NCBI GenBank assembly: GCA_934141535.1
Contig: CAKPCH010000004.1
Location: 56,755 to 120,754 of the forward strand
Length of the DNA: 64,000 bases
Direction: 5' to 3'
DNA from: an uncultured Bacilli bacterium
GTDB lineage: Bacteria; Bacillota_I; Bacilli_A; RF39; UBA660
Part shown: piece by piece, positions 19,470 through 51,340 of the stretch
Layout of the letters: each line of letters starts with the position of its first letter
Numbering within the stretch: position 1 is the first letter of the stretch
The notes under the pieces: model-generated
Databases searched by the model: none
The model's input: only the letters and a program-made list of their open reading frames with translations
Told to the model about the DNA's origin: nothing
Program-made: the position numbers and the translations under genes

Positions 19470-20105
19470 TTTATAACATCTTATTTTTTTGTACACTTCC
19501 CCTATTCTAAATAAAATAGCAAAATAGGGGAGTATCAAAGAAAGAAATCAATATGGATAATCATACATAAATTAGTTTGCCGATTGCTTAAAATTAACAT
19601 TGTTATTAAAATTAATTTATGATATATAATAATAAATAGTAAATATTTAAAAAATATTTAAAAAATTTAAAAATAAAATTTATATATTTAAAGATTGATC
19701 AAGTAAAAATAATTAATTACATATTTATATAACAATTTATATTGTATACAAAAAATAATAAAAATATAAACTTAATTTAGATGAATAATTAACCATTAAA
19801 TTAAAATTGCTTATTGTCCTACAATATATATTATGTTAACTTGTATAAAATGATTAATATGAGACGTTATCTAGGGTCTTTAAACTCTATAAAATCTATC
19901 TCATCGCCTTGCTTATCTACGTATGTACTTTTATATACTTTATCACAATTATTTATTATATCTAGATAATATAAGAACTCATTTTATACTAAATACCCAA
20001 ATGAGAAAAGTTATTTGATTTCTAGAATATTAAATGAAATAAATAATATTAATTAAATATGTATATATGTTAGTTTTTAGTAAATAATATAACTGGGTGA
20101 TTTAA

Positions 20106-20216
20106 ATGAAAAAGAATAATAAACAATCAAAAACTAACATGAATAATAAAAATTATAATTCATCTAGTTCAAGAGAAAAAAGTTCTAAAACTGAATCTAA
20201 TTTAGATTGTAAATAA
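20106..20216 (+). CDS. Candidate 36-aa small basic Asn/Ser/Lys-rich protein
   Basis: ATG 8 nt after a gggtga RBS; followed at once by a strong hairpin terminator. Absent from the ORF track because it is short. Confidence 0.3.
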   Translation: MKKNNKQSKTNMNNKNYNSSSSREKSSKTESNLDCK

Positions 20217-20225
20217 CCCACAATA

Positions 20226-20262
20226 AAAAGAGATACTTCATATATCTCTTTTTTGTATATAC
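20226..20262. terminator. Rho-independent terminator, usable by both the small ORF and convergent zupT
   Basis: aagagata-cttcata-tatctctt hairpin plus T6. Confidence 0.55.
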
Positions 20263-20268
20263 CCTACT

Positions 20269-21018
20269 CTAACTAAATAATATATGATTTATAATCATTA
20301 AAAGAGAACCATATATTATATATTTAAATGTATTTTTTTTATTTGTTTTTATAGCTTCTTTATATAATTCATTTATAGCTATATTTACCATCATTCCTGC
20401 TATTATAGCATATATTATTCCTAATATTGTATTATCTATATATTTAGATAAAAGTAGATATGATAGTAAAGCACCTAATGGTTCTGATATAGCTGAAATT
20501 AAAGTATATAAGAATGCTTTTATTTTACTATTAGTAGAATAATATATTGGGATTGCTATTGATATTCCTTCTGGTATATTATGGAGTGCTATAGCAATAC
20601 TTAATGTTATTCCTAGCTTTATATTATTATTTGAAGTAATAAATGTAACAATACCCTCTGGTATATTATGAAGAATTATTACAAGCATACTAATTATTCC
20701 TAATTTATATAGTTTTAAACTATTTTTAGAAGTTTTTTCTACTTTTTTATCTACTATATTAGAAATTATTATTCCTATTATAAAGCCTATAATAATTAAA
20801 ATGAATGTTATTGGTATAGAATGTTTAGTTATTATAGCTTTTAATGAACTAGGTATTAGATCACTAATAGATACTGTAGCCATTACTCCTACTGCAAAAC
20901 CTAATGCCTTACTTATTATATCTTCCCTATTTCTTTTTATAAATATAAATAGGAAGCCAATTAGAGTTGATATACCCGCCATTGAAGATAATAAAAAAGC
21001 ATATGCAGTATTAGTCAT
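20269..21018 (-). CDS. zupT: ZIP-family zinc transporter
   Basis: Two HNIPEGI motifs (LHNIPEGI twice) in an 8-TM protein of about 250 aa. Confidence 0.8.
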   Translation of the reverse strand: MTNTAYAFLLSSMAGISTLIGFLFIFIKRNREDIISKALGFAVGVMATVSISDLIPSSLKAIITKHSIPITFILIIIGFIIGIIISNIVDKKVEKTSKNSLKLYKLGIISMLVIILHNIPEGIVTFITSNNNIKLGITLSIAIALHNIPEGISIAIPIYYSTNSKIKAFLYTLISAISEPLGALLSYLLLSKYIDNTILGIIYAIIAGMMVNIAINELYKEAIKTNKKNTFKYIIYGSLLMIINHILFS

Positions 21019-21053
21019 AGTATCACCAATAAAGTATATGCTTAATTTTTTAG

Positions 21054-21719
21054 TTAATTAAATTTTACGCAATCATTTAATATATAATTCATAATATTTA
21101 TATCTGTAGTTGTATCATAATGTAGGCCATCTGGTAAATTAAACTTTAATGAACTATATGAGTCGCAATAATTCATTATATTATGAGTTTTACTTGCTAC
21201 TATTCTATTAAAGTTTTTAATTTTTTTATTAGTTCTTATATTATCCCATAAATCATTAATGATATCTTCATCTATTGGATTTACTGATAAGAAATAATAT
21301 GAAGCACTCTTATTATTTTTAATAAATTTTTTATATATATTAACATATTCATTAGCACGTTTTTTATAATCTATATCATAGTTTAAATCATTAACACCTA
21401 AATTAAATATTATATGATAATTAATATTTTTATTTTTTATTAAATTTTTAGCTTTAAATAAAGCTTCATTTTCTAAGAATTCTATATTAGCACCGTTTTT
21501 AGCAATAAATATAATAGAGTCTGGTATATTTAATTCTTCTCTTTTATTTTCTATTAAATACATTCTAGAATCACCAATTATTATTATATAATTTAATTTT
21601 GATATATTATTATTTATATTAAAGAATGCATTAACGCTATTTATATTAATAAAAAAGCATAGTGAACATAATAATAAAAATGAACATATTCTAAATTTTT
21701 TCTTTTTCATAAACATCAC
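21054..21719 (-). CDS. Secreted SGNH/GDSL-like hydrolase
   Basis: Signal peptide, then the IIIGDSRMY block (GDS-x) and a later DGLHYD segment resembling the catalytic DxxH. Confidence 0.5.
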   Translation of the reverse strand: MMFMKKKKFRICSFLLLCSLCFFININSVNAFFNINNNISKLNYIIIIGDSRMYLIENKREELNIPDSIIFIAKNGANIEFLENEALFKAKNLIKNKNINYHIIFNLGVNDLNYDIDYKKRANEYVNIYKKFIKNNKSASYYFLSVNPIDEDIINDLWDNIRTNKKIKNFNRIVASKTHNIMNYCDSYSSLKFNLPDGLHYDTTTDINIMNYILNDCVKFN

Positions 21720-21818
21720 TTAACTAGTTTAGCATTTATTTTGATTTTAATCAACTATATTAAAAATATTTATTGTTTTTTTAATTTGTATATGTTATAT
21801 TAATATTAGGGTGAGTTT

Positions 21819-22823
21819 ATGGTAAATAAGGATAAAGAAAGATATTATGGGGTTGATATATTAAGGATTATAGCAACCTTTTGTGTTATTGGAGTACATT
21901 TTTTCTTAAATACTAATTATTATGATGTGGATCCTGGTGGATTTAGTATGAGAATACAAAGTATTATTAGAAATTTTTGTATGATATGTGTTCCTTTATT
22001 TATTGTTATTAGTGGTTATTTAAATAAGAATAAAGAGTATAATAAAAGTTTTTTTAAGAAATTATTTAATATATTAATTATTTGGTTTTTTTATAGTTTA
22101 ATAGAATACTTTGTATTAAATATTATTAATGGTACTTATACTGATTTTAATTTAAAGAGTACACTTTACGCTATTACAACATTTAAAGGGTGTGAATATT
22201 CTTGGTATATTGAGATGTATATTGGACTTTATTTACTATCCCCTATTTTAAATAATGCATTTGATAGTTTAAATGATAAAAATAAGGATTATTTATTTAT
22301 TATAGCTATAATTATGTTTATTTTGCCTTCATTTATAAATACATTATTTATTAATATAATTCATATACCTTGTTGGTGGGCTACTATCTACCCTGTTGGT
22401 TATTATATAACTGGTAAATATATTAATTATAAACAGTTCAATTTTAAAAAGAAAAATTTATTTATACTATTAGTATTAACTCAAATAATTACTTTCTCAT
22501 ATACTTATATAGGAACAATTAATTATGATAGTTTAACTACTTATATAAGTACTATTATTGTGTTTTTAATATTTTATAATGTAAATATTAAAAGAAACTT
22601 TTCTAAAAATATATTAAAATATATTTCAAGTATTTGTTTAGATATTTATTTAGCTTCTAGTTTAATTGATAAGATTATATATCCTGTTTTTAATAATCAA
22701 ATGAATTTACATAGTATAAATCAAAGTAATTTAATAGTATTTATGCCTCTAGTAGTATTAACTGTATTTATAATATCAAGTATATATGGAAGTGTTAGAA
22801 AATTAATTATTAATGTAAGATAA
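21819..22823 (+). CDS. Acyltransferase family 3 integral membrane protein
   Basis: YYGVDILRIIATFCVIGVHFF N-terminal signature; about 10 TM segments. Confidence 0.7.
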   Translation: MVNKDKERYYGVDILRIIATFCVIGVHFFLNTNYYDVDPGGFSMRIQSIIRNFCMICVPLFIVISGYLNKNKEYNKSFFKKLFNILIIWFFYSLIEYFVLNIINGTYTDFNLKSTLYAITTFKGCEYSWYIEMYIGLYLLSPILNNAFDSLNDKNKDYLFIIAIIMFILPSFINTLFINIIHIPCWWATIYPVGYYITGKYINYKQFNFKKKNLFILLVLTQIITFSYTYIGTINYDSLTTYISTIIVFLIFYNVNIKRNFSKNILKYISSICLDIYLASSLIDKIIYPVFNNQMNLHSINQSNLIVFMPLVVLTVFIISSIYGSVRKLIINVR

Positions 22824-22853
22824 AAGAGATTTTAAATTAATCTCTTTTTTTCT
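22824..22853. terminator. Bidirectional terminator
   Basis: aagagatt-ttaaatt-aatctctt hairpin plus T7. Confidence 0.55.
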
Positions 22854-23344
22854 AATATAATATTATCTAAATCTCTTATAGTTAGTATATCATCATCTAC
22901 TATAATAAAACTATTAGAACCCATTCTTGATTTAGAAATTGATCCTGGATTTATAAATAATTTATTATTATATTCTTCTATTTTACTTATATGGGTGTGA
23001 CCAGTAAATATTATATTGGCATCTATTTTACTTAAATAGTCTTTATCAAATAAATCTCCATGTGTTAGAATTATTTTTTTATTATTTAGTTCTATTTCTT
23101 CTAAATACTTATTTCCAAATAATATACCTTTTAAATTGTTATCACAATTTCCTTTAACATATACTATATTATCTTTCATAAGGTTTAATCTATTAATTAT
23201 TTCTTCTATATTTAAATCTATTCCATAATTAATTAAATCGCCTAATATTAATAGTTTATTACAATGTTCTTTTTGATATATATTAAGGACTGTATTTAGA
23301 GCATCTATATTTCCATGTATATCTGATATTACCATATATTTCAT
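22832..23344 (-). CDS. YfcE-type metallophosphoesterase
   Basis: MVISDIHGN ... GDL ... GNCD ... THGD ... GHTH calcineurin-like motifs. Start at MKYM after the aaggtga RBS. Confidence 0.75.
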   Translation of the reverse strand: MKYMVISDIHGNIDALNTVLNIYQKEHCNKLLILGDLINYGIDLNIEEIINRLNLMKDNIVYVKGNCDNNLKGILFGNKYLEEIELNNKKIILTHGDLFDKDYLSKIDANIIFTGHTHISKIEEYNNKLFINPGSISKSRMGSNSFIIVDDDILTIRDLDNIILEKKRLI

Positions 23345-23349
23345 TTTTA

Positions 23350-24516
23350 TCACCTTAATTTAGTTAAAAAGCTTTTTCCTACTATTGGCATTGGAACTTT
23401 AAAATTATCTGCTATAGTGGCTCCTATATCACTAAAACAATCTAACTCTTTTAAATGTTTAGGATCTTTAAATTTTTTAGAATATATAAGTACTGGTGTA
23501 TTTTCTCTTGTATGATCTGTTCCCATATATGAAGGATCATTACCATGATCTGCAGTTATTATAAGTAAGTCATCATCCTTTAGGTTAGATTTTATTTCTC
23601 CTAAATAATTATCAAATTCTTTTATTGCTTCAGCATAACCTTTTATATTTCTTCTATGTCCATATTTAGAATCAAAATCATTTAAGTTAGCAAAACATAA
23701 TCCATTAAAATCTTCTTTTTCTGTTTCAAGTATTAAATTAATTCCTTCTAAGTTATTACCTGTATGTGTAGTTTTTGTAATACCACATCCATTAAATATA
23801 TCATTAATTTTACCAATTGCTATAACATCAAAACCATTATTTTTTAAGTTATCTAATACAGTATCTGATACAGGATCAAGTGCGAAATCTTTTCTATTAC
23901 CTGTTCTTATAAAGTTACCTTTAGTTCCTATATAAGGGCGCGCTATAATTCTTCCAACCTTCCATTCTTCTTTTAATGTAAGTTCTCTTGCTATAGCACA
24001 GTCTTCATATAATTCTTCTAGTGGTATAATGTCTTCATGAGCAGCTATTTGAAGTACTGAATCAGCTGATGTATAAACTATTAAGTCTCCTGTTTTCATT
24101 TGTTCTTCACCTAATTGTTTAATAATTTCAGTACCTGATGCATCACAATTACCTATTATATGTCTTTTACAACGTCTTTCTAATTCATCTATTAATTCTT
24201 TAGGAAATCCTGTTTTAGTAAATGTTTTAAATGGTATCAAAGTTCTTATACCCATCATTTCTAAATGACCTGTTAGTGTATCTTTACCATTTGCTTTTGG
24301 ATGTGCTTTAGTATAATAAGAATCTGTTTTCTCTATATTTTTATAATTTACTAAGTTTAAAAATCCCATTTTTTCTAAATTAGGATAATCAATAGGATTA
24401 TATTTTAAAATATGTCCTAATGTATTAGCACCCTCACTTTCAAATTTTTTAGCATCTATTGCTTCCCCTACTCCAAGTGAATCTAAAACTATTAAAAATA
24501 CTCTATTAAATTTCAT
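23350..24516 (-). CDS. deoB: Phosphopentomutase
   Basis: N-terminal RVFLIVLDSLGVGEA and the alkaline-phosphatase-like core. Start at MKFNR after the agaggga RBS. Confidence 0.85.
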   Translation of the reverse strand: MKFNRVFLIVLDSLGVGEAIDAKKFESEGANTLGHILKYNPIDYPNLEKMGFLNLVNYKNIEKTDSYYTKAHPKANGKDTLTGHLEMMGIRTLIPFKTFTKTGFPKELIDELERRCKRHIIGNCDASGTEIIKQLGEEQMKTGDLIVYTSADSVLQIAAHEDIIPLEELYEDCAIARELTLKEEWKVGRIIARPYIGTKGNFIRTGNRKDFALDPVSDTVLDNLKNNGFDVIAIGKINDIFNGCGITKTTHTGNNLEGINLILETEKEDFNGLCFANLNDFDSKYGHRRNIKGYAEAIKEFDNYLGEIKSNLKDDDLLIITADHGNDPSYMGTDHTRENTPVLIYSKKFKDPKHLKELDCFSDIGATIADNFKVPMPIVGKSFLTKLR

Positions 24517-39401: not shown

Positions 39402-40388
39402 TTAACCTAACATAGATTTTGAAATTGTTATAACTGGACGAAGACCATAGTTGTCAGAATTGTTGACTTCGTCGCGATTGCTAAAGTAACCATTATAGTA
39501 AACGCCCCACGCGTAGTAAGAGTAATCATCAGTAGGAGTTGTTGTCCAATATCCATATACTGGATGGGTTGTATCTTTTAAATTATCATATAACCATATT
39601 AGTAAAGCTCCTCCTTTATTGCCCGCTGCTATATATATTTGATCTTTTGTTGGAAAACTTACTTCTACTCCATTTTTATTAAATATACTCTTTATATGTC
39701 CTAAATAATCTTTGCCTTCTACAGCATTACTTCCTATTGCTGTTATATTTTTACAAGTTGTATTGATTATGCTTCCATCTGTACACCAAGCTACTCCTGA
39801 TGGCACATATGAATCCACAAAGTTTTCTTTCATGATTAAACTTACTGTATCTGTATTGTTTTCTAGTACAAAGAATGTATTTGTGTAACTATCTCCAACC
39901 TTGCATGTGTATTCATCACCATATGCATAACTTCCTGTTGGCACGTTCCCTGTTGTTGCTGTAGTTACTGCTGTACATACTGGATTGAATTGCTCTATTT
40001 TTCCATTATTATATGAATATGCTGCATCTGATACCTTAAAATTTGAAATACCTGTTATTTTCCCATTCGATAATAATATCTTACTACCTACATCTGGAGT
40101 TATTCCATTAATTTCTATTTTAATATAATCAGTAGTTCCATCACATTTTAATCCTTCACTTTCTACTACACATTCTGTTGGATTAAAGTTTGCCCCTGGA
40201 TGTACCATATTATATCTAGCTATCTCATTTTTTACTTGATCTAAATATAATTCTATACTTCTTTCTGTTGAATTATTTTTACTATCCTTTATTATATTTA
40301 ACACTACTGGTGTAGCTATTAATGCGATAATTGCAAGTATTACGATGACTGCTAATAACTCTATTAATGTAAAACCTTTATTTTTCAT
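39402..40388 (-). CDS. Type IV prepilin-like protein with a Cys-containing C-terminal globular domain (paralogous to 32431-34587)
   Basis: MKNKGFTLIELLAVIVILAIIALIA is a class III (prepilin peptidase) leader/methylation motif; C-terminal domain CTAVTTATTGNVP ... YGLRPVITISKS. Confidence 0.7.
   Translation of the reverse strand: MKNKGFTLIELLAVIVILAIIALIATPVVLNIIKDSKNNSTERSIELYLDQVKNEIARYNMVHPGANFNPTECVVESEGLKCDGTTDYIKIEINGITPDVGSKILLSNGKITGISNFKVSDAAYSYNNGKIEQFNPVCTAVTTATTGNVPTGSYAYGDEYTCKVGDSYTNTFFVLENNTDTVSLIMKENFVDSYVPSGVAWCTDGSIINTTCKNITAIGSNAVEGKDYLGHIKSIFNKNGVEVSFPTKDQIYIAAGNKGGALLIWLYDNLKDTTHPVYGYWTTTPTDDYSYYAWGVYYNGYFSNRDEVNNSDNYGLRPVITISKSMLG
39640..39990. repeat. DNA-level repeat (copy B), about 85% identical to 33880-34240
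   Basis: See copy A; the same conserved blocks in the same order on the same strand. Confidence 0.7.
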
Positions 40389-42120: not shown

Positions 42121-43371
42121 TTATAATGACCAATAAATTACATCACTCTCAAATTTATAATCTTTGTATATTGAATACAAATCTAATATTATTTTTTTAG
42201 AACATTTTTTATTAAAGTAGCTCATTATTTTTTCTTTATTCATACTTCTGTATTTATCATGTGGAACTGCGATTATCAGTATATCCAAATCTTGCAATTT
42301 CTCGTAATTATTAAAATAGGTATTTTTGTCAAATAACATATAATCCGAAATCCTACAATCATAATTTTGTTTTTTTAACTCACGATAGATTATATCAACC
42401 TTAGTATTTCTAACATCATCTGAATTTGCCTTATAAGAATAACCTAAAATTCCTACCTTAATATTGTTATTGTTTTTTATATCAGCTACCATCTCATTCA
42501 AACTATTTACTATAAATAAAGGAATATTCTCGTTTGTTTTTCTTGCTTGTTTTACTATATTCATATTATATCCATATTTGTTTCCTAAATCAATAAGATA
42601 ATACGGATCGATGCCAATACAATGACCTCCAACTAAGCCTGGAAGAACGTCAACAAAATTCCACTTTGTTTTTGCGGTTTCTAAAACATCTATTGTTGAT
42701 ATCTTCATTAAATGGCACAATTGTGAGACTTCATTAACAAATGCAATATTTAAATCCCTCTGAGAATTTTCAATAATTTTTGACAGTTCTGCGACTTTTA
42801 TGCAACTAGCTCTATACAAACTAACATTAGATATTAAACTGTATAATTTTTCAACTTGGTCTAAAACAAAATTATTTTGCGCTGAGATAACTTTAGTAAC
42901 AGAATTAATAGTATGAAGATTATCAGATGGGTTTATTCTTTCAGGAGAATATCCAACAAAAAAATCGACATTATTCTTTAACCCACTATATTTTTCTAAT
43001 AATGGAATGCATATATTTTCTGTTACGCCAGGATAATAAGAAGATTCAAATATTATTAGTGAATTTTTTTTAAAATTATACCCTATTGTTCTACAGGCTT
43101 CAATAACAAATTCCAAATTTGGTCTATTATTATCGTATACAGGCGTTGGGACTGTAACTATGATTGCATCTGACTTGCCAATACATTTGTCATTATAAGT
43201 ATAAACAATATTACAGTTTTTATTATTTTTGCTTAAAGTTTTAATTTTATCATTATCAATATCATATGCAAACACTTTTTTAGTTTTAGCAAATTCATTT
43301 ATTAAAGGTTGTCCAACATATCCAACACCAACTACTGTTATTGTAAAATTATTATCTCCTATTTCTTTCAT
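42121..43371 (-). CDS. NDP-sugar (UDP-glucose/UDP-N-acetylhexosamine) 6-dehydrogenase family protein
   Basis: N-terminal ITVVGVGYVGQPL Rossmann motif and a catalytic-Cys context (GGHCIGIDPYY); 416 aa. Confidence 0.8.
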   Translation of the reverse strand: MKEIGDNNFTITVVGVGYVGQPLINEFAKTKKVFAYDIDNDKIKTLSKNNKNCNIVYTYNDKCIGKSDAIIVTVPTPVYDNNRPNLEFVIEACRTIGYNFKKNSLIIFESSYYPGVTENICIPLLEKYSGLKNNVDFFVGYSPERINPSDNLHTINSVTKVISAQNNFVLDQVEKLYSLISNVSLYRASCIKVAELSKIIENSQRDLNIAFVNEVSQLCHLMKISTIDVLETAKTKWNFVDVLPGLVGGHCIGIDPYYLIDLGNKYGYNMNIVKQARKTNENIPLFIVNSLNEMVADIKNNNNIKVGILGYSYKANSDDVRNTKVDIIYRELKKQNYDCRISDYMLFDKNTYFNNYEKLQDLDILIIAVPHDKYRSMNKEKIMSYFNKKCSKKIILDLYSIYKDYKFESDVIYWSL

Positions 43372-43372
43372 A

Positions 43373-44191
43373 TTATCCCATCACTTTCAACAAAGGAGCA
43401 AGATACTTCTCACTTCCATAATTAATACCATTATAATCTTTAGCATTTCCATGATAATCCGTCCCTGCCGTTTTTATACAATCGATAAAAAGACTGTTTG
43501 TATCCAAATAATTACTAAATTCAATTGAATTTTTAGGATTAATGACTTCCAATCCATTTAATCCATAGTTTAAAAAAACTTTTACAATTGATTCAAATTC
43601 AATAATAGATGAACATTGATTTAAAAGTGTCATGGGATGAGCTAAAACAATTATAGAATTAAGTGATTTCAATATGTCAATTGTTTCTTTAACTTGTAAT
43701 TTCTTTTGAACTATATATGACTGACTTCTAGAACCAATAAAGTTTTTATAAATAAAATCAACATCATCAACATTAAATTTTTCTAATAATATTTTGGCTA
43801 TAATCCGTTTATTTAACAGATCTTTTGTGTACTTTTTTATGTCATTATCATCAATAACAATTCCATATTTATATTCTAATATTTTTATAGCAGCCCTACA
43901 AATGTAATCATTTTCTAACTTTATTTGTCTTAAATATCCATTAAGTTTTTTTAAATCATTAACTCCATATGCTAACAAATGAATACTTTTGTTATTATAA
44001 TTACAATCAATTTCAATACCGTTTATTATAGTTATATTATTGTATAATGATGTTACACTCTCGCATATGTTATGATCAGTAAAAGATAAATACAATATAT
44101 TATTGTCTAATGCTGTTTTAATTAAATCGTCTCTACTTGAAATACCATCACTTAATGTACTATGAACATGTAAATCAAAATTTATAGACAT
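43373..44191 (-). CDS. PHP-domain metal-dependent phosphoesterase
   Basis: FDLHVHSTLSDG N-terminal PHP motif, internal ... AHP ... and GTDYHG. Start placed at MSINFDLHVHS. Confidence 0.7.
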   Translation of the reverse strand: MSINFDLHVHSTLSDGISSRDDLIKTALDNNILYLSFTDHNICESVTSLYNNITIINGIEIDCNYNNKSIHLLAYGVNDLKKLNGYLRQIKLENDYICRAAIKILEYKYGIVIDDNDIKKYTKDLLNKRIIAKILLEKFNVDDVDFIYKNFIGSRSQSYIVQKKLQVKETIDILKSLNSIIVLAHPMTLLNQCSSIIEFESIVKVFLNYGLNGLEVINPKNSIEFSNYLDTNSLFIDCIKTAGTDYHGNAKDYNGINYGSEKYLAPLLKVMG

Positions 44192-44630
44192 TTTTACACA
44201 ACCTTTCATTTAATTCCCAAAGTGCATTTTTATTGCTATCCCATTCAAACATTTTCATTGCATCACTATAATTAACCCATTTAAAAGATTTATGTTCTTC
44301 AGATATTTTTATTTTGGCATCATCCACACAAACACCAAATGAATATTCTTTTACGATATATGTTTCTTTTTCAAACTTTGTACCTGAAATATTAATTGAA
44401 GGCATGCTAGCAAATGATGATAATTTTACTAAATTTGTGTTGTATGGAATATTACCTTCTTCATACATTTCCCTTCGTGCAGCCTGTTCTATACTTTCAC
44501 TGTCCTCTACTCCACCAGCTATTCCTTGCCATACATTTAAATCCTCTCTTAAAAATAAACAATATTCAATACAATTTAATTTTGTATTCATTCTATATGG
44601 AATAACTAAAACTTGTATTGGCTTCCTCAC
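44175..44630 (-). CDS. Nudix hydrolase, NudB-like (dihydroneopterin triphosphate pyrophosphatase-like), copy 2
   Basis: Nudix box GGVEDSESIEQAARREMYEEGNI (Gx5Ex7REUxEExGU). Layout and C-terminal ALWELN segment resemble NudB; about 45% identical to 48370-48819. Confidence 0.65.
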   Translation of the reverse strand: MRKPIQVLVIPYRMNTKLNCIEYCLFLREDLNVWQGIAGGVEDSESIEQAARREMYEEGNIPYNTNLVKLSSFASMPSINISGTKFEKETYIVKEYSFGVCVDDAKIKISEEHKSFKWVNYSDAMKMFEWDSNKNALWELNERLCKNVYKF

Positions 44631-45585
44631 TATTAACCTCCTTAATGATATTTATAACACTATTTTTCTTACTTAATAGCCACTTTATCATTTCAAATTT
44701 GTATTTTGCATAACTAATATCATCATCGACATCAAGACAGTAAAGGCTATTTAAGGATATATAGTTAAATAAATTCAAGCCATCTAATAAGTATTCATTA
44801 GTAATATAATAAACATTTTTATATCCCTCAAGAAAATTTTTAATATTATATAAAATTTTTGTATCATCAAAATTTTTATCATAACATATCATACTAATTG
44901 CACGATATATTTCATATTGTAAAGGAAAAATGCAAGTTTGGTCTAAATCTAGACACACTAATTTATTTGTTTTGATAATGTTATCAAGGTAAAAATCGCC
45001 GTGCACAATTTTATTGTTATATTTTAAATAAATTTGTTCAATACTCCTAAAGTCAACTTTTTTTAATAGTTTTAACTTTGACCTTAAAATTTGAATTGCC
45101 TCTGTGTTACCTGTTTTTACATGCAAACTAATTAAATTATTAATTCTATCTATATTGGGAGTGGTCATATTTAAATTTTTTGTATCATAGTTTTTGATAT
45201 TTTTAATAATAGATGAATTTAGGGTTTTATGTATATTCCCAAGCAACTCTCCTAGTTTATACTGCTCTTGAGAACCCAATCTTTGTTTATTCAAATGTAG
45301 ACCATCAATATATTCATATAAAACGTAATATTTATCATTATATGTAAAATATGTTCTACCATCTATTGTAAAAATAATCTTGGCTGATAAATTATTGCTC
45401 GATAAAATATTTTGAACAACATTTATAAACTCAAGCCTATTTAACTTATCAACAGCCATTTCTTTTAATAGATATTTCCTATCTTTTGTAGTTAATATCC
45501 ACTTTTTGCAAGCATATCCTAATGATAAAGGCTGTTTTTCTATTATAAAAATATTATAAAAATCATTAATAATTTTATTTTTCAT
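44593..45585 (-). CDS. APH-fold small-molecule kinase (aminoglycoside/choline/sugar-kinase phosphotransferase family)
   Basis: HGDFYLDNII (HGD catalytic loop) and DLDQTCIFP (DxD metal-binding). RBS gggaga; overlaps the DegT stop by 11 nt. Confidence 0.65.
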   Translation of the reverse strand: MKNKIINDFYNIFIIEKQPLSLGYACKKWILTTKDRKYLLKEMAVDKLNRLEFINVVQNILSSNNLSAKIIFTIDGRTYFTYNDKYYVLYEYIDGLHLNKQRLGSQEQYKLGELLGNIHKTLNSSIIKNIKNYDTKNLNMTTPNIDRINNLISLHVKTGNTEAIQILRSKLKLLKKVDFRSIEQIYLKYNNKIVHGDFYLDNIIKTNKLVCLDLDQTCIFPLQYEIYRAISMICYDKNFDDTKILYNIKNFLEGYKNVYYITNEYLLDGLNLFNYISLNSLYCLDVDDDISYAKYKFEMIKWLLSKKNSVINIIKEVNSEEANTSFSYSI

Positions 45586-46744
45586 TTAATTCTCCCAAAA
45601 CTTCATATAATGATTTAACAAATGAATTACATATATATTGATTATCTTTTTTAGACATGTTGAAATGAATGGGTAAGTTTATTATTCTCCCACCTAATTC
45701 ACGCGAAATGTTTTTATATTTAGTATCTATATGTTCATCAACATATTTATGAATCATAAATGTGGGTTCATTAGCAACGGTAGTTTTTATTTGATACTTT
45801 TCTTCTAAAATTTTCATAATTTTATTTCTGCTGTTTCTAGTAAACATATCATTTAATATGATAGTATAATAGGTATAAATATGATAGTAAATTTCATCAA
45901 AAACTGGCAAAGAAAAATATTTGCTATACTTTTTTAACATATTATTTCTTTGAAGTGCTACTTTACGTCTTTTTTTGTTATATTTATCAATTTTTTTTAA
46001 TTGTGATATACCCACGCTGGATTGAACTTTTGATAATTTATAATTCGAGCCCCAAGCATCCATTTTTCTTCCACCAAATTCTCTTCTTTTTTTCATTTTT
46101 TCATAATATTCATAATTATTCGTTAAAATCATACCGCCTTCTCCAAGAGTGGATATGTTTTTTTTGCTTTGAAAGCTAAAAACTGATATATCTCCCAAGC
46201 AACCGACTTTCTTTTTATCATAAGATGCACCACAACATCTAGCGACATCTTCTATTATAACGATATTAGAATCATATTTTTTTATAATATTAATAATTTT
46301 ATTCATATCAGCAGATACACCATTCATATGTGTAACAACAACTGCCCTGGTATTTTTTGTTAAATTATTTTTGATTGAATTTGCCGAAATATTTAAAGTT
46401 TTATCATCAACATCACATAATACTAATTTTGCTGGAGTTGACAATATTGATAAATGTGTACCATAGAAATTTATTGCAGATGATATGACTTCATCATTTG
46501 GTTTTAATTCAAGAACTTGCATTGCAATATCAATGCCACTATTACAACCGTTTACAGATAATGCATATTTTTTCCCTATATATTCTGAAAATTTTTTTTC
46601 AAATTCTACGCGATAATCAATGGTATCACATACTTTCCAGTTGCATAAACTATGCATCGACTTAATAACATATATATAGTCAGTTATGGTATATTTAAAA
46701 TTTGGAGGTTGAGACTGATAACTTTTTTTCACTATTAAACACAT
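45575..46744 (-). CDS. DegT/DnrJ/EryC1/StrS-family PLP-dependent sugar aminotransferase/dehydratase
   Basis: YALSVNGCNSGIDIAMQVL, DEVISSAINF, and the SFQSKKNIS region (PLP-binding Lys in SxxxxK context); 389 aa. Confidence 0.75.
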   Translation of the reverse strand: MCLIVKKSYQSQPPNFKYTITDYIYVIKSMHSLCNWKVCDTIDYRVEFEKKFSEYIGKKYALSVNGCNSGIDIAMQVLELKPNDEVISSAINFYGTHLSILSTPAKLVLCDVDDKTLNISANSIKNNLTKNTRAVVVTHMNGVSADMNKIINIIKKYDSNIVIIEDVARCCGASYDKKKVGCLGDISVFSFQSKKNISTLGEGGMILTNNYEYYEKMKKRREFGGRKMDAWGSNYKLSKVQSSVGISQLKKIDKYNKKRRKVALQRNNMLKKYSKYFSLPVFDEIYYHIYTYYTIILNDMFTRNSRNKIMKILEEKYQIKTTVANEPTFMIHKYVDEHIDTKYKNISRELGGRIINLPIHFNMSKKDNQYICNSFVKSLYEVLGELNEK

Positions 46745-46784
46745 CCTTTTAAAATTTAAACAATTTTACTATTTAGCCTATTAT

Positions 46785-47756
46785 TTAGTTACTATAATTA
46801 GAAAATATGTTGCTTTTATGCACTAATATTTTTGCGGTAGATAAATAAAAATCACTTTGATGGTCATTAAATTTCAATAATTCATTCAGAAAAAATTGTT
46901 CCTTAGATATAGCTGAAATGTGTTGTCTTTCTATTTGCGATATAATTTCCTCTACATCCAACAACTCATTAAAAACTTGCATGCTATTTTTTTTGTCATA
47001 ACATGTAACAATAATTTCAGAAAGTTCTGCTTTTGAAACGAATTTACAATTAAAGGCATTAAGTAAATTAAAAACAGTCAAATTGAGTTTTTTGGAATCC
47101 AGGCAATTGTCAGCATTTTTTTGATATAATTCTTTATCAATATACGGTAATATAAGGTTCTTAAGATTATAATTTAATTCTAATGTTGGATATCTTAAAC
47201 CTAGATTAGAAGGAAAACCATATACAATTAATTTTCCATTATAATATCTTAATCCTATTCTATCATTTCCCATATAATCATATTTTTTGGATAATAAATA
47301 AAATAATAAATTTGTCGTTTTACCACTACCACTATTGCCAATAAAAACAGTTGCTTTATTTGTTTTTTTATTTACCACTGATGCCCCATGAACAAAATAA
47401 ATTCCAATATCTTCATAATATTTGGCAAAAATATCTATTATTATTCTCTTTAGATTAAGACAATGATCTGCATTAAAATGATCATAAATAAATTTAATAT
47501 TATTTTTTTTATTTGAAAAAATCAATGTATTTGGCGCCATAATAAAACATTTATTTTTAGAATATTCAATTGTTTCTTCAGCAACAATATCAAGAGTAAC
47601 TAATTCAGTTGGAATGTTTTTCTCATTATAATCACTAATAACAAAACACCCATTAAAATGTTGAGACATTTTTGTATTAAGATTGGGTACACTTGTTTTA
47701 ATTATTATTTTTAGCCCATCTTTAAATATTTCATAGCAGTTCATTTTAAGCTTCAT
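46785..47756 (-). CDS. HPr kinase C-terminal-domain-like P-loop protein
   Basis: HGASVVNKKTNKATVFIGNSGSGKTT resembles the HprK/P C-domain (H-G ... GxSGxGKS/T). Confidence 0.4.
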   Translation of the reverse strand: MKLKMNCYEIFKDGLKIIIKTSVPNLNTKMSQHFNGCFVISDYNEKNIPTELVTLDIVAEETIEYSKNKCFIMAPNTLIFSNKKNNIKFIYDHFNADHCLNLKRIIIDIFAKYYEDIGIYFVHGASVVNKKTNKATVFIGNSGSGKTTNLLFYLLSKKYDYMGNDRIGLRYYNGKLIVYGFPSNLGLRYPTLELNYNLKNLILPYIDKELYQKNADNCLDSKKLNLTVFNLLNAFNCKFVSKAELSEIIVTCYDKKNSMQVFNELLDVEEIISQIERQHISAISKEQFFLNELLKFNDHQSDFYLSTAKILVHKSNIFSNYSN

Positions 47757-47795
47757 TCCTTTCTATTCCATATATAAGCACACAAACAAGAAAAA

Positions 47796-48362
47796 CTACA
47801 AATGTTTTATTGTGTCCAACTTTGCCATCGACATATTACTTTGTGGCAATATTATATACTCATTATTAGGGTTAGATTTTATATAAGTTATATTATATTC
47901 TTTAAACAAATCCATATATTTCAAACTACGTTTTATACTTTCTAAATACTCTATATCTCCACGAGTTGTATCATACCAGTCTTTTTTTTTAACTCTTTCA
48001 AGTAAAACTTCCGTATCTGCTGTAACATATATTATATCAATACTAATGTCATTTAACTTTTCTTTAATTGTTTTAATAAAATTACCTCTTATGTCTGAAT
48101 TCTGTCCTTTGATCAAAATAATTATATCATTTTTTTGTGAACACAACAATATAATGTCATCTATCATTTCAATTCGTTTTTCAGTAATATTGTCAGTTTT
48201 ATTTTTTGATATATATTCAATACTTTTATCGAGAATAATTGTTTTTTTCAAATCAATATTTAAATTAGAATTTAATTTTTCATCTTTGCCATTATAGATG
48301 TACTTAATTAATGTTTCTTTGCCACTAGCACTACTGCCAAAAAACCAAATTAATCTATTCAT
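47796..48362 (-). CDS. Small P-loop kinase (NMP/sugar kinase-like, AAA_33-type)
   Basis: N-terminal WFFGSSASGKETL Walker A; 188 aa. Confidence 0.5.
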   Translation of the reverse strand: MNRLIWFFGSSASGKETLIKYIYNGKDEKLNSNLNIDLKKTIILDKSIEYISKNKTDNITEKRIEMIDDIILLCSQKNDIIILIKGQNSDIRGNFIKTIKEKLNDISIDIIYVTADTEVLLERVKKKDWYDTTRGDIEYLESIKRSLKYMDLFKEYNITYIKSNPNNEYIILPQSNMSMAKLDTIKHL

Positions 48363-48369
48363 TGCAATA

Positions 48370-48819
48370 CTATTTTAAATCAGAATTTAATAATCTTTGA
48401 TTTAATTCCCAAAGTGCAGTTTTATTACTATCAAATTCTAATTTCCTACATGCTTCATCAAATGGAAGCCATTCATAACAATTGTGTTCACTAGATAATT
48501 TAATACTACTATTTTTTGTAAATACTCCAAATGAATATTCTGTAACAACGTACACGTCATTTCCCCAAGTGAATTTTCCTGTTATATTAATAACAGGTAT
48601 TGAGCAAACAGATGATAGTTGAAAAATATTATTTGCCTCTATATTTGTTTCTTCAAAAACTTCTCTTTTTACTGTTTCAATCAAGGTTTCTTCATCTTCC
48701 ACTCCACCTGATATAGCCTGCCATATTTGCTTTTTTTTTCTATAAAATACACAATATTCATATTCGTCTTTCTTGTTTTTTCTATATAAGAATATTAATA
48801 CTTGTTTTGGCTTTCTCAT
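48370..48819 (-). CDS. Nudix hydrolase, NudB-like, copy 1
   Basis: IWQAISGGVEDEETLIETVKREVFEETNI Nudix box (compare E. coli NudB FWQSVTGSVEEGET ... REVKEE). 2-nt gap to the upstream radical SAM gene. Confidence 0.7.
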   Translation of the reverse strand: MRKPKQVLIFLYRKNKKDEYEYCVFYRKKKQIWQAISGGVEDEETLIETVKREVFEETNIEANNIFQLSSVCSIPVINITGKFTWGNDVYVVTEYSFGVFTKNSSIKLSSEHNCYEWLPFDEACRKLEFDSNKTALWELNQRLLNSDLK

Positions 48820-48820
48820 G

Positions 48821-50017
48821 TTATTTTTTCTCCTTTATTTCATTTATGCTTTTTATTAATGATTCTATCCCACCTTCATTATATATTTCATAGGCAATTT
48901 CTAATAATCTGTTTGCTCTATTTTTAAATGGATCACATACTGATGGACAAATGTCTGGAATTTTATCATCAATTTTATTTTCTAAAATTTTCCCCCAAAT
49001 TTCACTAAAACTTTGTTTAATCGTCGAACCATAATTATATCCGTTTTTCTTTGGATGATAATTACATAAATAAACTTTGCCATCGGATGAAATGTTACCT
49101 ATTAGATAATGGACAAAACACTTATTAAATTTTCTGATTTTGTCATCATCACTCATAACATTATGAATTTCAACTACTGAAAAGAATTCATCACATAATT
49201 CTTTTTTTACTTGTTTAATTTGTTCACTTGCAATATTTTTTTCTTCATCGTTCATGACAAGTAAAGATGCAATATCTGTTTTGAATCGCAAATAGTGAAC
49301 ACCTATTCTTTTCAGTTTTTTAGCTAGCCCATAAATCTGGTCATAATTATATTGGTTAATAACATAACCTACGTTAATATCTATATTGCTATTATTTTTT
49401 TTCTTTGATTCATATAAATCCTCTATATTTTTTAATATAGTTTCAAAGCTATTAGTGTTGCTACCATTACATTTTAATTTATTATATGTTTCATGATTTC
49501 CAGCATCTATACTTATTAATATATATCCCAGTTTTAATAATGTCTCATGCATTTTTTTATCAATAAGAATACCATTTGTAAATAAGCCAACACGAATATT
49601 ATGTTTTGACAATTCTTCTATAGCATACAAAACAGAATCTTTTGCAATTAAAGGTTCTCCTGTTATTCCTGAAAAAGTAACATTTTCAACTCTGTATTCC
49701 TTATTACAATTATTTTTGTAATCATAACCCATTTTTTTGTAAGTTATAATATCATTTACTATCTTAATCATGTTTTTTTTCTTAACCAAGGCATTATCTA
49801 GTAATGTCTCTTTATTTTCTTTAGAGGAAACATATCCACCTATACACCATTTACAGTTTAAATTACAGATACTAGATGTGTGAATTAATATTTCATACGG
49901 TGGTAAAATTTCACCATTAAAAATATTTAAAATGCGAGAAAAATGTCTATCCAACATTTCCATCTCATTAAATCTGCCAGGTAAATCATCTCTATAAACT
50001 TCTCTTAATTTATTCAT
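48821..50017 (-). CDS. Radical SAM enzyme (about 400 aa) of unknown specificity
   Basis: CNLNCKWC (Cx3Cx2C) about 45 residues into the protein, SGITGEPL (SAM/glycine-rich motif), LFTNG, and C-terminal Cys CNYHP ... CPSVCDP. Start placed at MNKLREV after a ggagtg RBS; the ORF track starts 21 nt upstream. Confidence 0.75.
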   Translation of the reverse strand: MNKLREVYRDDLPGRFNEMEMLDRHFSRILNIFNGEILPPYEILIHTSSICNLNCKWCIGGYVSSKENKETLLDNALVKKKNMIKIVNDIITYKKMGYDYKNNCNKEYRVENVTFSGITGEPLIAKDSVLYAIEELSKHNIRVGLFTNGILIDKKMHETLLKLGYILISIDAGNHETYNKLKCNGSNTNSFETILKNIEDLYESKKKNNSNIDINVGYVINQYNYDQIYGLAKKLKRIGVHYLRFKTDIASLLVMNDEEKNIASEQIKQVKKELCDEFFSVVEIHNVMSDDDKIRKFNKCFVHYLIGNISSDGKVYLCNYHPKKNGYNYGSTIKQSFSEIWGKILENKIDDKIPDICPSVCDPFKNRANRLLEIAYEIYNEGGIESLIKSINEIKEKK

Positions 50018-50191
50018 TATTAACACTCCATAAATCACTTATATGTATATATTACCATTTTTCAAAAAAAAGTCAATTGTTGTAAGGCAATCGTGTAAAA
50101 AATAATAAATAAATCTACTTAACAATTAACTATCATAGTATTATTTTAAAAATAAGTCATTCTATTCTCAAAAAATCTAACGCATTTTTTA

Positions 50192-50422
50192 TTAATAAAC
50201 AATATTTACTAATATTACATCTTCACCTATTTTTTCTATTTGTTCCCATTTAACTACCATTTCTTTTTTATTTGTAAAATAAGAAAGTAAAAATCTATGT
50301 TTTTCTACTATTAATCCTGTTGTTTTACCATTATCATCTATACTCATATCTATTATATTGCCTATATTTTTCCCATCTAATAAGTTTATTACTGTTTTAT
50401 TTTGTAAATCAGACATGCGCAT
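50192..50422 (-). CDS. YlmC/YmxH-family PRC-barrel sporulation protein
   Basis: MRMSDLQNKTVINLLDGKNIGNIIDMSIDDNGK matches the YlmC/YmxH family; 76 aa. Confidence 0.7.
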   Translation of the reverse strand: MRMSDLQNKTVINLLDGKNIGNIIDMSIDDNGKTTGLIVEKHRFLLSYFTNKKEMVVKWEQIEKIGEDVILVNIVY

Positions 50423-50467
50423 ATTAAATCACCAGTATATTATATGAAAAAAATAGGCATATGTAGC

Positions 50468-51340
50468 CTATTTAATTAATTTTTTTGTTTTTAATACATC
50501 TATTACTTTTATATTATCTTCTCTATTTAAAGTTATTGCTCCATTTATTAAAGATATGTTAAAGTTATTTCCGGTAATTATTTCTCCATCTATATTGCAG
50601 CACAATTTATTATTTGAAGATATATGTATATTATTATCTTTATATACTTGAAATTCTTTTCTACCTACATGACGAACTTTAACTAATTTACTTAATAGAT
50701 ATAATAATCTAATTTTACTAACACTATCTACTTCACATATATCAAACATACCATCATTTAAATTATAGTTAGGATATATGTTAAATCCTCCACCATAATA
50801 TCCACCATTACAAATAGTTAAAATAGTTACTTTTTTATTAACTCCATTAATATTTAAATTTATTGGTTTAAATGTTAAAAAACTACTTAATAGTGCTTTT
50901 GTATATATTTTACTATTATCTAGATTTGTACTTTTTAATTCTTCTGCTTTAGCAGCTGTTATAGCATCTATTCCAAAAGAAGCTATATTAATAAAATATC
51001 TATCGTTAACTTTACCTAAATCTATTTTATTATTGTCAATGTTTTTTAAACTCTTATAGAAATCATTACCACTTCCTACAGGTATAACATCTAGTTTAGC
51101 ACTCCCACCTACTAATCCAGTAACTACTTCATTTAAAGTACCATCTCCACCTACACTATATATAATTGTATTTGGCATGTTTTTATATCTTGAAGTTAAG
51201 GTAATTGCTTCTTTTTCTTTACTTGTATATATAACTTTATAATTAATTTTTTTCTCTTTACAATAAGATTCAATAATTTTACCTGCTTCAAGTCCTTTAG
51301 AATCCCCTGATGTAGGATTTACTATAAATATATAATTCAT
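50468..51340 (-). CDS. dagK: Diacylglycerol/lipid kinase (DagK/YegS family, DAGK_cat)
   Basis: MNYIFIVNPTSGDSKG N-terminus and GGDGTLNEV; 290 aa. Confidence 0.75.
   Translation of the reverse strand: MNYIFIVNPTSGDSKGLEAGKIIESYCKEKKINYKVIYTSKEKEAITLTSRYKNMPNTIIYSVGGDGTLNEVVTGLVGGSAKLDVIPVGSGNDFYKSLKNIDNNKIDLGKVNDRYFINIASFGIDAITAAKAEELKSTNLDNSKIYTKALLSSFLTFKPINLNINGVNKKVTILTICNGGYYGGGFNIYPNYNLNDGMFDICEVDSVSKIRLLYLLSKLVKVRHVGRKEFQVYKDNNIHISSNNKLCCNIDGEIITGNNFNISLINGAITLNREDNIKVIDVLKTKKLIK

Follow-up and report, generated by a model that had tools for sequence, protein, structure and literature searches.

A mobile bacterial gene cassette encoding three kinases of unrelated folds with a radical SAM enzyme and an aminotransferase: a putative pathway for modified nucleotides or amino-sugars

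The window analysed here, a stretch of 64,000 nucleotides from an uncultured Bacilli bacterium (assembly GCA_934141535.1, contig CAKPCH010000004.1, positions 56,755 to 120,754), carries a nine-gene operon at 42121–50038 on the minus strand. Its middle, 44593–48362 (minus strand), encodes three kinases of unrelated folds together with an aminotransferase, and the same gene set recurs as a mobile cassette in many other bacteria. The GC (guanine plus cytosine) content of the genome is 24%. All cassette genes lie on the minus strand and are tightly packed, with neighbours overlapping or abutting and gaps of 40 nt at most. The first gene encodes a radical S-adenosylmethionine (SAM) enzyme with a SPASM domain (48821–50038). 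It is followed by Nudix A (48370–48819, 149 aa, PF00293), a small P-loop kinase-like protein (47796–48362, 188 aa), an HprK-like kinase of the HprK/PEPCK P-loop fold (46785–47756, an open reading frame (ORF) of 323 aa), a pyridoxal phosphate (PLP)-dependent aminotransferase of the DegT/DnrJ/EryC1 family (45575–46744, 389 aa, PF01041), an APH-fold small-molecule kinase (44593–45585, 330 aa, PF01636), the Nudix A paralogue Nudix B (44175–44630, 151 aa, PF00293) and a PHP-family metal-dependent phosphoesterase (43373–44209, 278 aa, PF02811). The last gene, which starts one base past the PHP stop codon, encodes a nucleotide-sugar 6-dehydrogenase (42121–43371, 416 aa, TIGR03026). Homologues and gene calls suggest two corrected starts. 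The HprK-like protein likely begins at M5 (46785–47744, 319 aa) and the radical SAM enzyme likely at M8 (48821–50017, 398 aa). An earlier note on this DNA had described the three kinases in one operon with two Nudix, one PHP and one radical SAM gene. All of its quoted motifs were found in the translations, and the operon is the nine-gene unit given above.

The APH-fold kinase contains KIVHGDFYLDNII, in which H195, G196, D197 and N202 form the motif HGDFYLDN, and CLDLDQT with D211 and D213. Its match to PF01636 scored 39.4 bits against a cut-off of 23.2 bits over residues 19–242. Among 18 family members, H195, G196, D197, N202 and D213 are invariant and the ATP-binding K41 is at least 90% conserved, and the HGDxxxxN catalytic motif is present in 35 of the 36 cluster-linked members. 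The fold and the HGD/DxD motifs named in the earlier note were thereby confirmed, and as a sequence-based assignment the APH fold is firm. When the family profile was compared with solved structures, homoserine kinase II (1.5e-16), YtaA, N-acetylhexosamine 1-kinase (4e-12) and amicoumacin kinase were matched. The nearest solved relatives differ in their substrates, which are homoserine, N-acetylhexosamine (at the anomeric position), amicoumacin and spectinomycin.

The 323-aa protein contains FVHGASVV, then FIGNSGSGKTTN with the P-loop GNSGSGKTT, and then GNDRIG. No Pfam or NCBIfam model matched it above cut-off, the best being PEPCK_ATP at E = 0.004. The models of HPr kinase/phosphorylase (PF07475 and TIGR00679) gave no threshold match, and the FomB model (NF000361) gave no match. 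A word-indexed search of 5.8 billion proteins returned only 7 close homologues, and an exhaustive HMMER search seeded with the close-homologue alignment returned 308 remote relatives. An alignment of 76 sequences was composed of the window protein, 3 close homologues and 72 remote ones. Within it, HprK-related kinase B (TIGR04355) was matched by 66 sequences, HprK-related kinase A by 26, the hpr-ser model (HPr(Ser) kinase) by 24, PF07475 (Hpr_kinase_C) weakly by 22, and ScmC by 17. The FomB family, named phosphonate monophosphate kinase in NCBIfam, was matched by 22 of the 76, with a best E of 4.9e-7. With AlphaFold2, the predicted local distance difference test score rose from 47 (catalytic domain, 6-sequence alignment) to 91.1 with the 76 sequences. 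Foldseek searches with this model placed ATP-PEPCK on top (8e-9) and HprK/P at about 7e-6. Therefore, the 323-aa protein is a member of the HprK/PEPCK fold superfamily and not an HprK/P orthologue, an assignment from the model that is firm at the superfamily level only. The HprK-like label of the earlier note thus holds for the fold, but its PF07475 assignment was not borne out at the curated threshold. The N-terminal alpha/beta domain (about residues 1–117) is family-specific and unlike that of HprK/P.

Loss of the catalytic residues of the HprK fold had been named in the earlier note as a ground for refutation. Judged by alignment, the window protein has K146, the upstream H123 and D165 after the P-loop, and the note was not refuted on this point. 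Across 41 cluster-linked members R104, G140, G145, K146, N164 and R188 are invariant, and H123 is found in 35. D165 is shared by the window protein and 11 of the 14 displayed members and replaced by E or S in the other three, these positions having been aligned by sequence. In the cassette family the putative counterpart of the general-base Asp of HprK is common without being invariant. Given their invariant motifs, both the APH-fold and the HprK-like kinases are predicted to be catalytically intact. In 24 of 32 loci the neighbours of the HprK-like gene are radical SAM, Nudix, DegT and APH genes, with no ptsH or other phosphotransferase system (PTS) genes. Among its remote homologues one is fused to a MutT-type Nudix domain and one matches pyruvate, phosphate dikinase models, which may tie the fold further to nucleotide or phosphoryl-transfer chemistry.

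The third protein, of 188 aa, contains FFGSSASGKETL, the Walker A motif (GSSASGKET). The pattern GxSAxGKET is invariant in its family, and Arg/Lys-rich segments are present. The match to AAA_18 was 23.1 bits, under the cut-off of 29.4 bits, yet it was obtained for all 10 of 10 family members. Other sub-threshold matches were AAA_33 (E = 0.045), dNK (E = 0.002), the PADLOC model VakA (4e-4) and a PHROG guanylate kinase (6e-5). The protein is therefore likely a kinase and, more tentatively, one resembling nucleoside monophosphate (NMP) or nucleoside kinases. As for the small P-loop kinase of the earlier note, the Walker A motif stood but AAA_33 stayed below threshold and the assignment is weak. 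Single-sequence searches of the PDB with this protein, the radical SAM enzyme and the APH-fold kinase, and a search with the HprK-like family profile, gave no significant match.

In order to see how far the gene set is conserved, one genome per species was scanned, and 66 radical SAM loci were scored with iterated profiles made from the window proteins. The counts refer to 32 loci that remained after dereplication and extended at least 6 kb to both sides of the radical SAM gene. A Nudix gene is present in 27 of these, the HprK-like gene in 24, DegT in 22, APH in 20, the dehydrogenase in 15, PHP in 9 and the small P-loop gene in 1. The loci come from at least seven phyla, which include Bacillota, Actinomycetota, Pseudomonadota, Patescibacteria, Elusimicrobiota, Acidobacteriota and WOR-3. 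Complete cores were found within Bacillota in Bacilli, Clostridia, Listeria monocytogenes, Bacillus fungorum and megaplasmids of B. toyonensis. Elsewhere they were found in many Streptomyces, Pseudonocardiaceae, Pectobacterium, Atlantibacter, Pseudomonadales, Patescibacteria, Elusimicrobia, Pyrinomonadaceae and WOR-3. Therefore, at least seven phyla share a conserved core that includes two of the three kinases, HprK-like and APH. The juxtaposition of the three kinases is not chance, because the same gene set recurs in many genomes. Co-conservation with the radical SAM and Nudix genes, which the earlier note had anticipated for the kinases, thus holds for these two but not for the small P-loop protein. 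The expectation that syntenic homologues always keep all three kinases failed. The small P-loop gene is confined to the clade of the window, and its only 22 homologues in 5.8 billion proteins all lie within the cassette wherever the context was read. It is a recent clade-specific addition.

Gene fusions usually join consecutive steps. A fusion of APH and HprK-like domains in one ORF of 657 aa was observed at locus L055 (3022–4995), on a single contig of a metagenome-assembled genome (MAG), and could be an assembly error. DegT and APH are fused in one ORF of 687 aa at loci L014 (12704–14767) and L016 (12697–14760), which belong to two different MAGs. Because they are fused in single ORFs, APH and HprK-like as well as DegT and APH would catalyse consecutive steps. 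The cycling through mono-, di- and triphosphorylated intermediates proposed in the earlier note gains plausibility from the APH and HprK-like fusion and from the resemblance of about a third of the aligned HprK-like sequences to FomB, but it is still a prediction.

The close version of the cassette, whose HprK-like proteins are 55–100% identical, keeps the same 8–9 genes in at least four genomic contexts. In the species of the window it lies between ylmC and iagA, unchanged in many human-gut assemblies, and every contig read of this species has it. The second context lies between secG and rlmN. The third is an element of about 9 kb that has a helix-turn-helix (HTH) gene and a large serine recombinase, has no dehydrogenase and splits a penicillin-binding-protein (PBP) gene. 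In the fourth, a permuted cassette lies beside a serine recombinase. At locus L001 (5480–18447; also L002 and L003) the cassette, an HTH_36 gene, two small ORFs and the large serine recombinase stand between two halves of the PBP gene, with the PBP_dimer/Transpeptidase part upstream and the Transpeptidase/PASTA part downstream. The arrangement resembles an intervening element of the skin type, by which a gene for the cell wall or for sporulation is split. At locus L009 (15917–21257), from Pectobacterium, the genes next to the cluster encode an integrase fragment (Arm-DNA-bind_3), DUF2971, CHP02642 and a primase (Zn_Ribbon_Prim/Toprim/DUF927), which suggests a position on or beside a satellite-like integrative element. 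The cassette is horizontally mobile, as seen from its differing chromosomal sites, its serine-recombinase islands and its plasmids. An empty insertion site for comparison with the window was sought and none was found. A DNA search of phage records returned only distant radical SAM genes (25% identity) and thus gave no evidence of a phage-borne cassette.

This distribution bears on whether the cassette could be a housekeeping salvage, repair or cofactor pathway without any toxin, such as a pterin/folate-type route, the clean-up of damaged nucleotides or the recycling of 5'-deoxyadenosine. Such a function would fit three observations: both Nudix proteins have NudB as their best NCBIfam model, the operon lies amid genes for housekeeping and sporulation and includes neither regulator nor exporter, and every contig read of the species has it. 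However, the distribution over at least seven phyla is patchy and sporadic, and the insertion sites differ between close relatives and include recombinase-bearing islands and megaplasmids. Relatives also carry tailoring and export genes, and the HprK-like family is extremely rare. A housekeeping role is therefore very unlikely.

The accessory genes were surveyed by clustering unassigned neighbours and scanning representatives. Adenosine deaminase was found in 9 loci, from Bacilli, Elusimicrobia, Streptomyces, a gammaproteobacterium and a MAG labelled Bacteroides. A TobZ/NodU-type carbamoyltransferase was found in 8 loci and ABC exporters in 5, and HTH regulators and large serine recombinases are also among the accessory genes. 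NDP (nucleoside diphosphate)-sugar epimerase/dehydratase genes occur in three distant loci. The Listeria version adds a ligase resembling class-II aminoacyl-tRNA synthetases, a carrier protein and a BtrH_N-domain protein. The B. toyonensis megaplasmid version adds a decarboxylase, a carrier protein and a protein of the acyl-CoA-dehydrogenase family (ACAD). Nucleotidyltransferase genes of the NTP_transf_5 or NTP_transf_2 families are present in some loci. The absence of a classical nucleotidyltransferase, noted earlier for this DNA, is thus true of the window but not of all its relatives. A GFO_IDH_MocA oxidoreductase occurs only in the variants L011, L017 and L021, which have no DegT. The Bacilli locus L011 (1–21227; also L012 and L017) is particularly rich, with 7 Nudix, 5 PHP and 2 APH genes, adenosine deaminase, CYTH, inorganic pyrophosphatase and His_Phos_1. 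GrpB, HAD, UvrD helicase and RelA/SpoT genes stand in the same neighbourhood, and the GFO/IDH/MocA oxidoreductase takes the place of DegT. Such accessory genes are typical of antibiotic clusters, and their pattern is that of a family of natural-product clusters built around nucleotide chemistry, with tailoring that differs between lineages.

The radical SAM enzyme passes the cut-offs of Radical_SAM (PF04055, 48.2 bits) and SPASM (PF13186, 25.1 bits). Over 22 sequences the motif CNLxCxWC (C51, C55 and C58) and exactly four C-terminal cysteines (C300, C318, C357 and C361) are invariant. The four cysteines are consistent with a single auxiliary cluster, the 'twitch' arrangement known from the dehydrogenase BtrN. 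The database matches of the enzyme are all weak and include tungsten-enzyme maturase, viperin, anSME, SuiB, CteB, SkfB, DesII and BlsE. The viperin model NF038283 is the second-best NCBIfam match (60.8 bits against a cut-off of 180 bits), and the PADLOC pVip model matched the radical SAM core only (61.9 bits, 1.5e-17). Most of these weak matches are peptide maturases. The HprK-related kinase B and ScmC families, which recur among the aligned HprK-like sequences, are companions of SPASM maturases. The enzyme pair could therefore be read as a radical SAM/SPASM maturase and an HprK-like peptide kinase acting on a precursor whose gene lies elsewhere, in the manner of phosphorylated lasso peptides and of NCBIfam's GeoRSP/HprK-related systems, that is, a pathway for a peptide that is ribosomally synthesised and modified post-translationally (RiPP). 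However, the short gaps of the cassette hold no ORF of precursor size, and neither a RiPP recognition element (RRE) nor a PqqD gene was seen in or beside it. Only four auxiliary cysteines are conserved, which fits one cluster, and enzymes of small molecules and nucleotides make up the obligate partners, which are DegT, Nudix and APH, in many loci joined by NDP-sugar dehydrogenase and adenosine deaminase. This explanation is the least probable of those considered and was rejected because of the missing precursor and RRE genes.

The remaining enzymes point to nucleotides or nucleotide-sugars. Nudix A matched PF00293 at 42.3 bits, with the NudB model as its best NCBIfam match (65 bits, below cut-off), and its PDB matches are 3son (2e-28), the Ap4A hydrolase NUDT2, and NudB. 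Nudix B matched PF00293 at 46.6 bits, has NudB likewise as best NCBIfam match and is 49% identical to Nudix A. The PHP protein matched PF02811 at 33.9 bits. In NCBIfam it came closest to 3',5'-nucleoside bisphosphate phosphatase (85 bits), followed by RNase RNM (78 bits), without reaching either cut-off. With PDB matches to 9etk, 2yb1, 3e0f and 7ug9, it resembles phosphatases of 3'-phosphoadenosine 5'-phosphate (pAp) and RNase Rnm. DegT matched PF01041 at 257 bits, and the solved proteins closest to it are scyllo-inositol, perosamine and QdtB aminotransferases. The dehydrogenase scored 293 bits against TIGR03026 (cut-off 189.8 bits) and its translation contains the catalytic-Cys motif GGHCIGIDP, which identifies it, at the level of sequence, as a genuine NDP-sugar 6-dehydrogenase. 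It fell below cut-off for all of the substrate-specific equivalogs TviB (262 bits), WecC and TuaD. Cluster-linked dehydrogenases of other phyla scored 282–304 bits to that of the window, and the best solved enzyme 153 bits. The copies from other phyla are far closer than characterised enzymes, and therefore the dehydrogenase belongs to the pathway where it is present. In Listeria, Pectobacterium, L011 and L083, its gene and that of the radical SAM enzyme are direct neighbours.

An NDP-hexose could accordingly be the substrate. The dehydrogenase would make a uronic acid of UDP-N-acetylhexosamine, or UDP-glucuronic acid. The radical SAM enzyme would oxidise, dehydrate or decarboxylate it to a keto-sugar, for which BtrN, BlsE and DesII are precedents in radical SAM sugar oxidation, dehydration and decarboxylation, and DegT would aminate the keto-sugar. 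The logic is that of WbpA/WbpB/WbpE or Ugd/ArnA/ArnB. Nudix and PHP would then free the amino(uronic) sugar, and the APH (as an anomeric kinase), HprK-like and P-loop kinases would either re-activate or inactivate this sugar. An aminosugar, an aminoglycoside-like metabolite or an activated sugar donor would result. This explanation agrees with the cluster-specific clade of the dehydrogenase and its position against the radical SAM gene in several phyla, with the sugar or cyclitol aminotransferases nearest to DegT, and with the N-acetylhexosamine 1-kinase match of the APH family. The carbamoyltransferase, the BtrH_N domain and carrier-protein acylation resemble aminoglycoside-style tailoring. 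The epimerase/dehydratase and nucleotidyltransferase genes of some loci and a conserved proline after the Nudix box, described below, would also be accommodated. On the other hand, about half of the complete loci, that of a Patescibacteria genome among them, have no dehydrogenase, and no glycosyltransferase, flippase or polymerase is linked to the cassette. The scheme gives no role to adenosine deaminase, to the pAp-phosphatase-like PHP, to the NudB/Ap4A-like Nudix or to the NMP-kinase-like protein, and it does not explain why an NDP-sugar would be hydrolysed and then phosphorylated again. An NDP-hexose substrate is the main alternative, though somewhat unlikely. A related reading, in which the cassette would make a surface polysaccharide, was rejected because there are no linked glycosyltransferase or export genes.

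Taken together, we tentatively favour a self-contained mobile cassette that would take a nucleotide-linked substrate, turn its sugar into an amino-deoxy derivative and control the phosphorylation of this derivative, with a purine ribonucleotide as the preferred substrate. The most likely product is a phosphorylated amino-sugar nucleotide or nucleoside analogue, and this is probably a toxic antimetabolite. The purine ribonucleotide is favoured because of the adenosine deaminase, the affinities of Nudix and PHP, the NMP-kinase-like protein and the low similarity to viperins. The L011 version points to a nucleotide substrate as well because CYTH, pyrophosphatase and His_Phos genes adjoin it. At first, the twitch-type radical SAM enzyme would oxidise or dehydrate a secondary alcohol of the sugar to a ketone, taking the part of the NAD-dependent oxidoreductase Pur10/AdgB of the puromycin and 3'-amino-3'-deoxyguanosine (ADG) routes. 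Second, the DegT aminotransferase would turn the ketone into an amine. Third, the APH-fold kinase may place a first phosphate on a hydroxyl, the HprK/PEPCK-fold kinase may extend the monoester to a diphosphate, as the NCBIfam family name implies for FomB, and the small NMP-kinase-like P-loop protein, in the clade of the window only, may add or exchange a further phosphate. The two Nudix paralogues and PHP would then reverse this ladder, either for maturation to an exportable nucleoside or for self-protection. The nucleotide-sugar dehydrogenase, which about half of the loci have, would feed or tailor the pathway as an optional step. By these steps an adenine or other purine ribonucleotide could become an aminonucleoside or aminonucleotide antimetabolite that poisons polymerases or GTPases, used for competition or against phage.

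Several observations weigh against the purine ribonucleotide pathway. A kinase ladder together with hydrolases in one operon looks futile unless the two are separated in time or substrate. DegT is missing from the otherwise complete loci L011, L017, L021 and L049, and therefore amination is not universal. The NudB/Ap4A likeness of the Nudix proteins conflicts with a proline about 16 residues past the Nudix box in about 45 of the 51 cluster-linked members, because we take this proline to be a signature of ADP-sugar hydrolases and not of nucleoside triphosphate (NTP) pyrophosphohydrolases. The dehydrogenase has no obvious role on a 5'-phosphorylated ribonucleotide. An NDP-hexose fits it better, and the same is true for the likeness of APH to N-acetylhexosamine 1-kinase. 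None of the cassette enzymes was placed in a characterised orthologous group, and their NCBIfam equivalog matches were all far below cut-off. The window cassette has no exporter or regulator gene, and the PADLOC scan found no known defence system, just the weak pVip and VakA similarities.

There is a further variant that we consider unlikely. The radical SAM enzyme and DegT would turn an NTP, or its sugar, into an amino-deoxy analogue, and the three-kinase ladder, from the APH-fold through the HprK/PEPCK-fold to the NMP-kinase-like enzyme, would rebuild the triphosphate in the producer. The cassette would then be a viperin-like chain-terminator module for immunity or as an antibiotic, independent of NAD and oxygen. 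If this were true, it would be the first nucleotide-level role of an HprK-fold kinase, in a module mobile in gut Bacilli, Listeria, Bacillus plasmids, Enterobacterales, Streptomyces and Patescibacteria.

If the favoured explanation holds, the cassette would define a gene-cluster family for modified nucleotides or amino-sugars in at least seven phyla, including human-gut Bacilli and Listeria monocytogenes. Its products would be new nucleoside or aminosugar antimetabolites and candidate antibiotics or antivirals, comparable to ADG and to 3'-deoxy-3',4'-didehydro-CTP (ddhCTP). It would also offer an enzymatic route to amino-deoxy sugars independent of oxygen and NAD, and the HprK/PEPCK kinase fold would have its first defined role on small molecules apart from fosfomycin resistance. 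The natural fusions of APH with HprK-like and of DegT with APH are ready experimental handles. For annotation, a 'hypothetical protein' between Nudix and DegT in such clusters can be predicted to be a kinase.

The surroundings of the cassette in the window were also inspected. An intergenic leader at 50039–50194 (minus strand), a probable promoter region, lies between the ylmC-like gene and the radical SAM gene. Promoter-like hexamers at 50171–50143 and 50076–50049 are not more frequent than expected by chance in AT-rich DNA, so that the scan for promoters and terminators was uninformative. An Rfam search of the window, leader included, found no riboswitch or other RNA family. Directly upstream of the cassette lies a gene for a 76-aa PRC-barrel protein (YlmC/YmxH-like, 50195–50422, minus strand). 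Ahead of it, after a diacylglycerol (DAG)-kinase gene, is a terminator-like hairpin at 50451–50473, the only convincing one of the region. The ftsA, ftsZ, sigma factor, PRC-barrel and DAG-kinase genes suggest that the cassette was inserted into a sporulation/division gene neighbourhood. Downstream, after a gap of 180 nt, is an IagA/BgsA glycosyltransferase gene, which is a housekeeping neighbour linked to the cassette only in the species of the window. At 39402–40388 (minus strand), beside the gene of a 138-aa protein of unknown function, lies one for a protein of 328 aa whose N-terminus carries a methylation motif like that of type IV pilins, KGFTLIELL (PF07963). In the region of about 20000–24000, cumulative GC skew is maximal near 20–22 kb and its sign flips from positive to negative, a pattern resembling that of a replication terminus or of a point of strand switch.

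Searches of open-access full-text literature turned up no account of these genes in combination, and the names given by the NCBI pipeline to the B. toyonensis plasmid copy are generic only. The cassette may best be described as a putative small cluster for a nucleoside or aminosugar antimetabolite, with kinases of three folds, an unusual set, and a radical SAM enzyme as oxidant. In the searches made, no described pathway matched it. The fosfomycin cluster, the recently solved nucleoside cluster thmABC of 4'-thiothymidine and the sin/snf cluster of sinefungin were rejected as the same system. The last has a B12-dependent radical SAM enzyme, peptide aminoacyl-tRNA ligases (PEARLs) and arginase, and no PLP enzyme. 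In contrast to HprK/P and the HprK-like kinases of lasso peptides, the cassette kinase has another N-terminal domain, lacks PF07475/TIGR00679 matches, and stands in no PTS, HPr or peptide context. The pVip/VakA viperin systems share a radical SAM enzyme beside a nucleotide-kinase-like protein, and a modified NTP is a plausible output in both. However, the cassette enzyme is far below the viperin cut-off and has an auxiliary-cluster domain, which to our knowledge viperins do not have, and the cassette adds aminotransferase, Nudix and PHP. In butirosin biosynthesis, the twitch radical SAM dehydrogenase BtrN works with a DegT-family aminotransferase, and BtrH/BtrI carry out acylation. The cassette likewise pairs a single-auxiliary-cluster radical SAM enzyme with DegT, and BtrH_N, carrier-protein and decarboxylase genes appear in its Listeria and Bacillus versions. 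It differs in having no 2-deoxy-scyllo-inosose synthase or glycosyltransferase, and its putative likeness to BtrN is one of auxiliary-cluster type.

FomA and FomB of the fosfomycin pathway reportedly confer self-resistance, to judge from the title of the study by Kobayashi in 2000. The parallel is that an HprK/PEPCK-fold kinase would extend a monoester made by an unrelated first kinase, and that the FomB model is matched by 22 of the 76 aligned sequences. The differences are that the window protein itself is below the FomB model, that the first kinase is APH-fold, FomA belonging to another kinase family, and that the cassette has no phosphonate genes.

By analogy, the puromycin/ADG aminonucleoside pathway is the closest precedent. 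The pur and adg gene families comprise an oxidoreductase, an aminotransferase (Pur4/AdgC, DegT-type), a Nudix hydrolase and a phosphatase. The cassette has no NAD oxidoreductase of the Pur10/AdgB type and carries a twitch/SPASM radical SAM enzyme instead. Its phosphatase is PHP-type, and it has two or three extra kinases, a second Nudix and often an NDP-sugar dehydrogenase. Phosphotransferases serve as producer self-resistance for aminonucleoside and other nucleoside antibiotics (PMC12710036), and according to a review of 2025 the gene clusters for 3'-amino-3'-deoxyadenosine and 2'-amino-2'-deoxyguanosine are still unidentified (PMC12648386). The genes adgB–E, homologous to pur10, pur4, pur7 and pur3, make ADG, a prodrug that is phosphorylated in the target cell to a triphosphate terminating RNA chains (PMC9239236). 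With DegT, two Nudix and PHP in one operon, the cassette has the same combination of aminotransferase, Nudix and phosphatase. Compared at the level of gene families, both small cassettes would follow the same order of sugar oxidation, transamination, removal of pyrophosphate by Nudix and action of a phosphatase.

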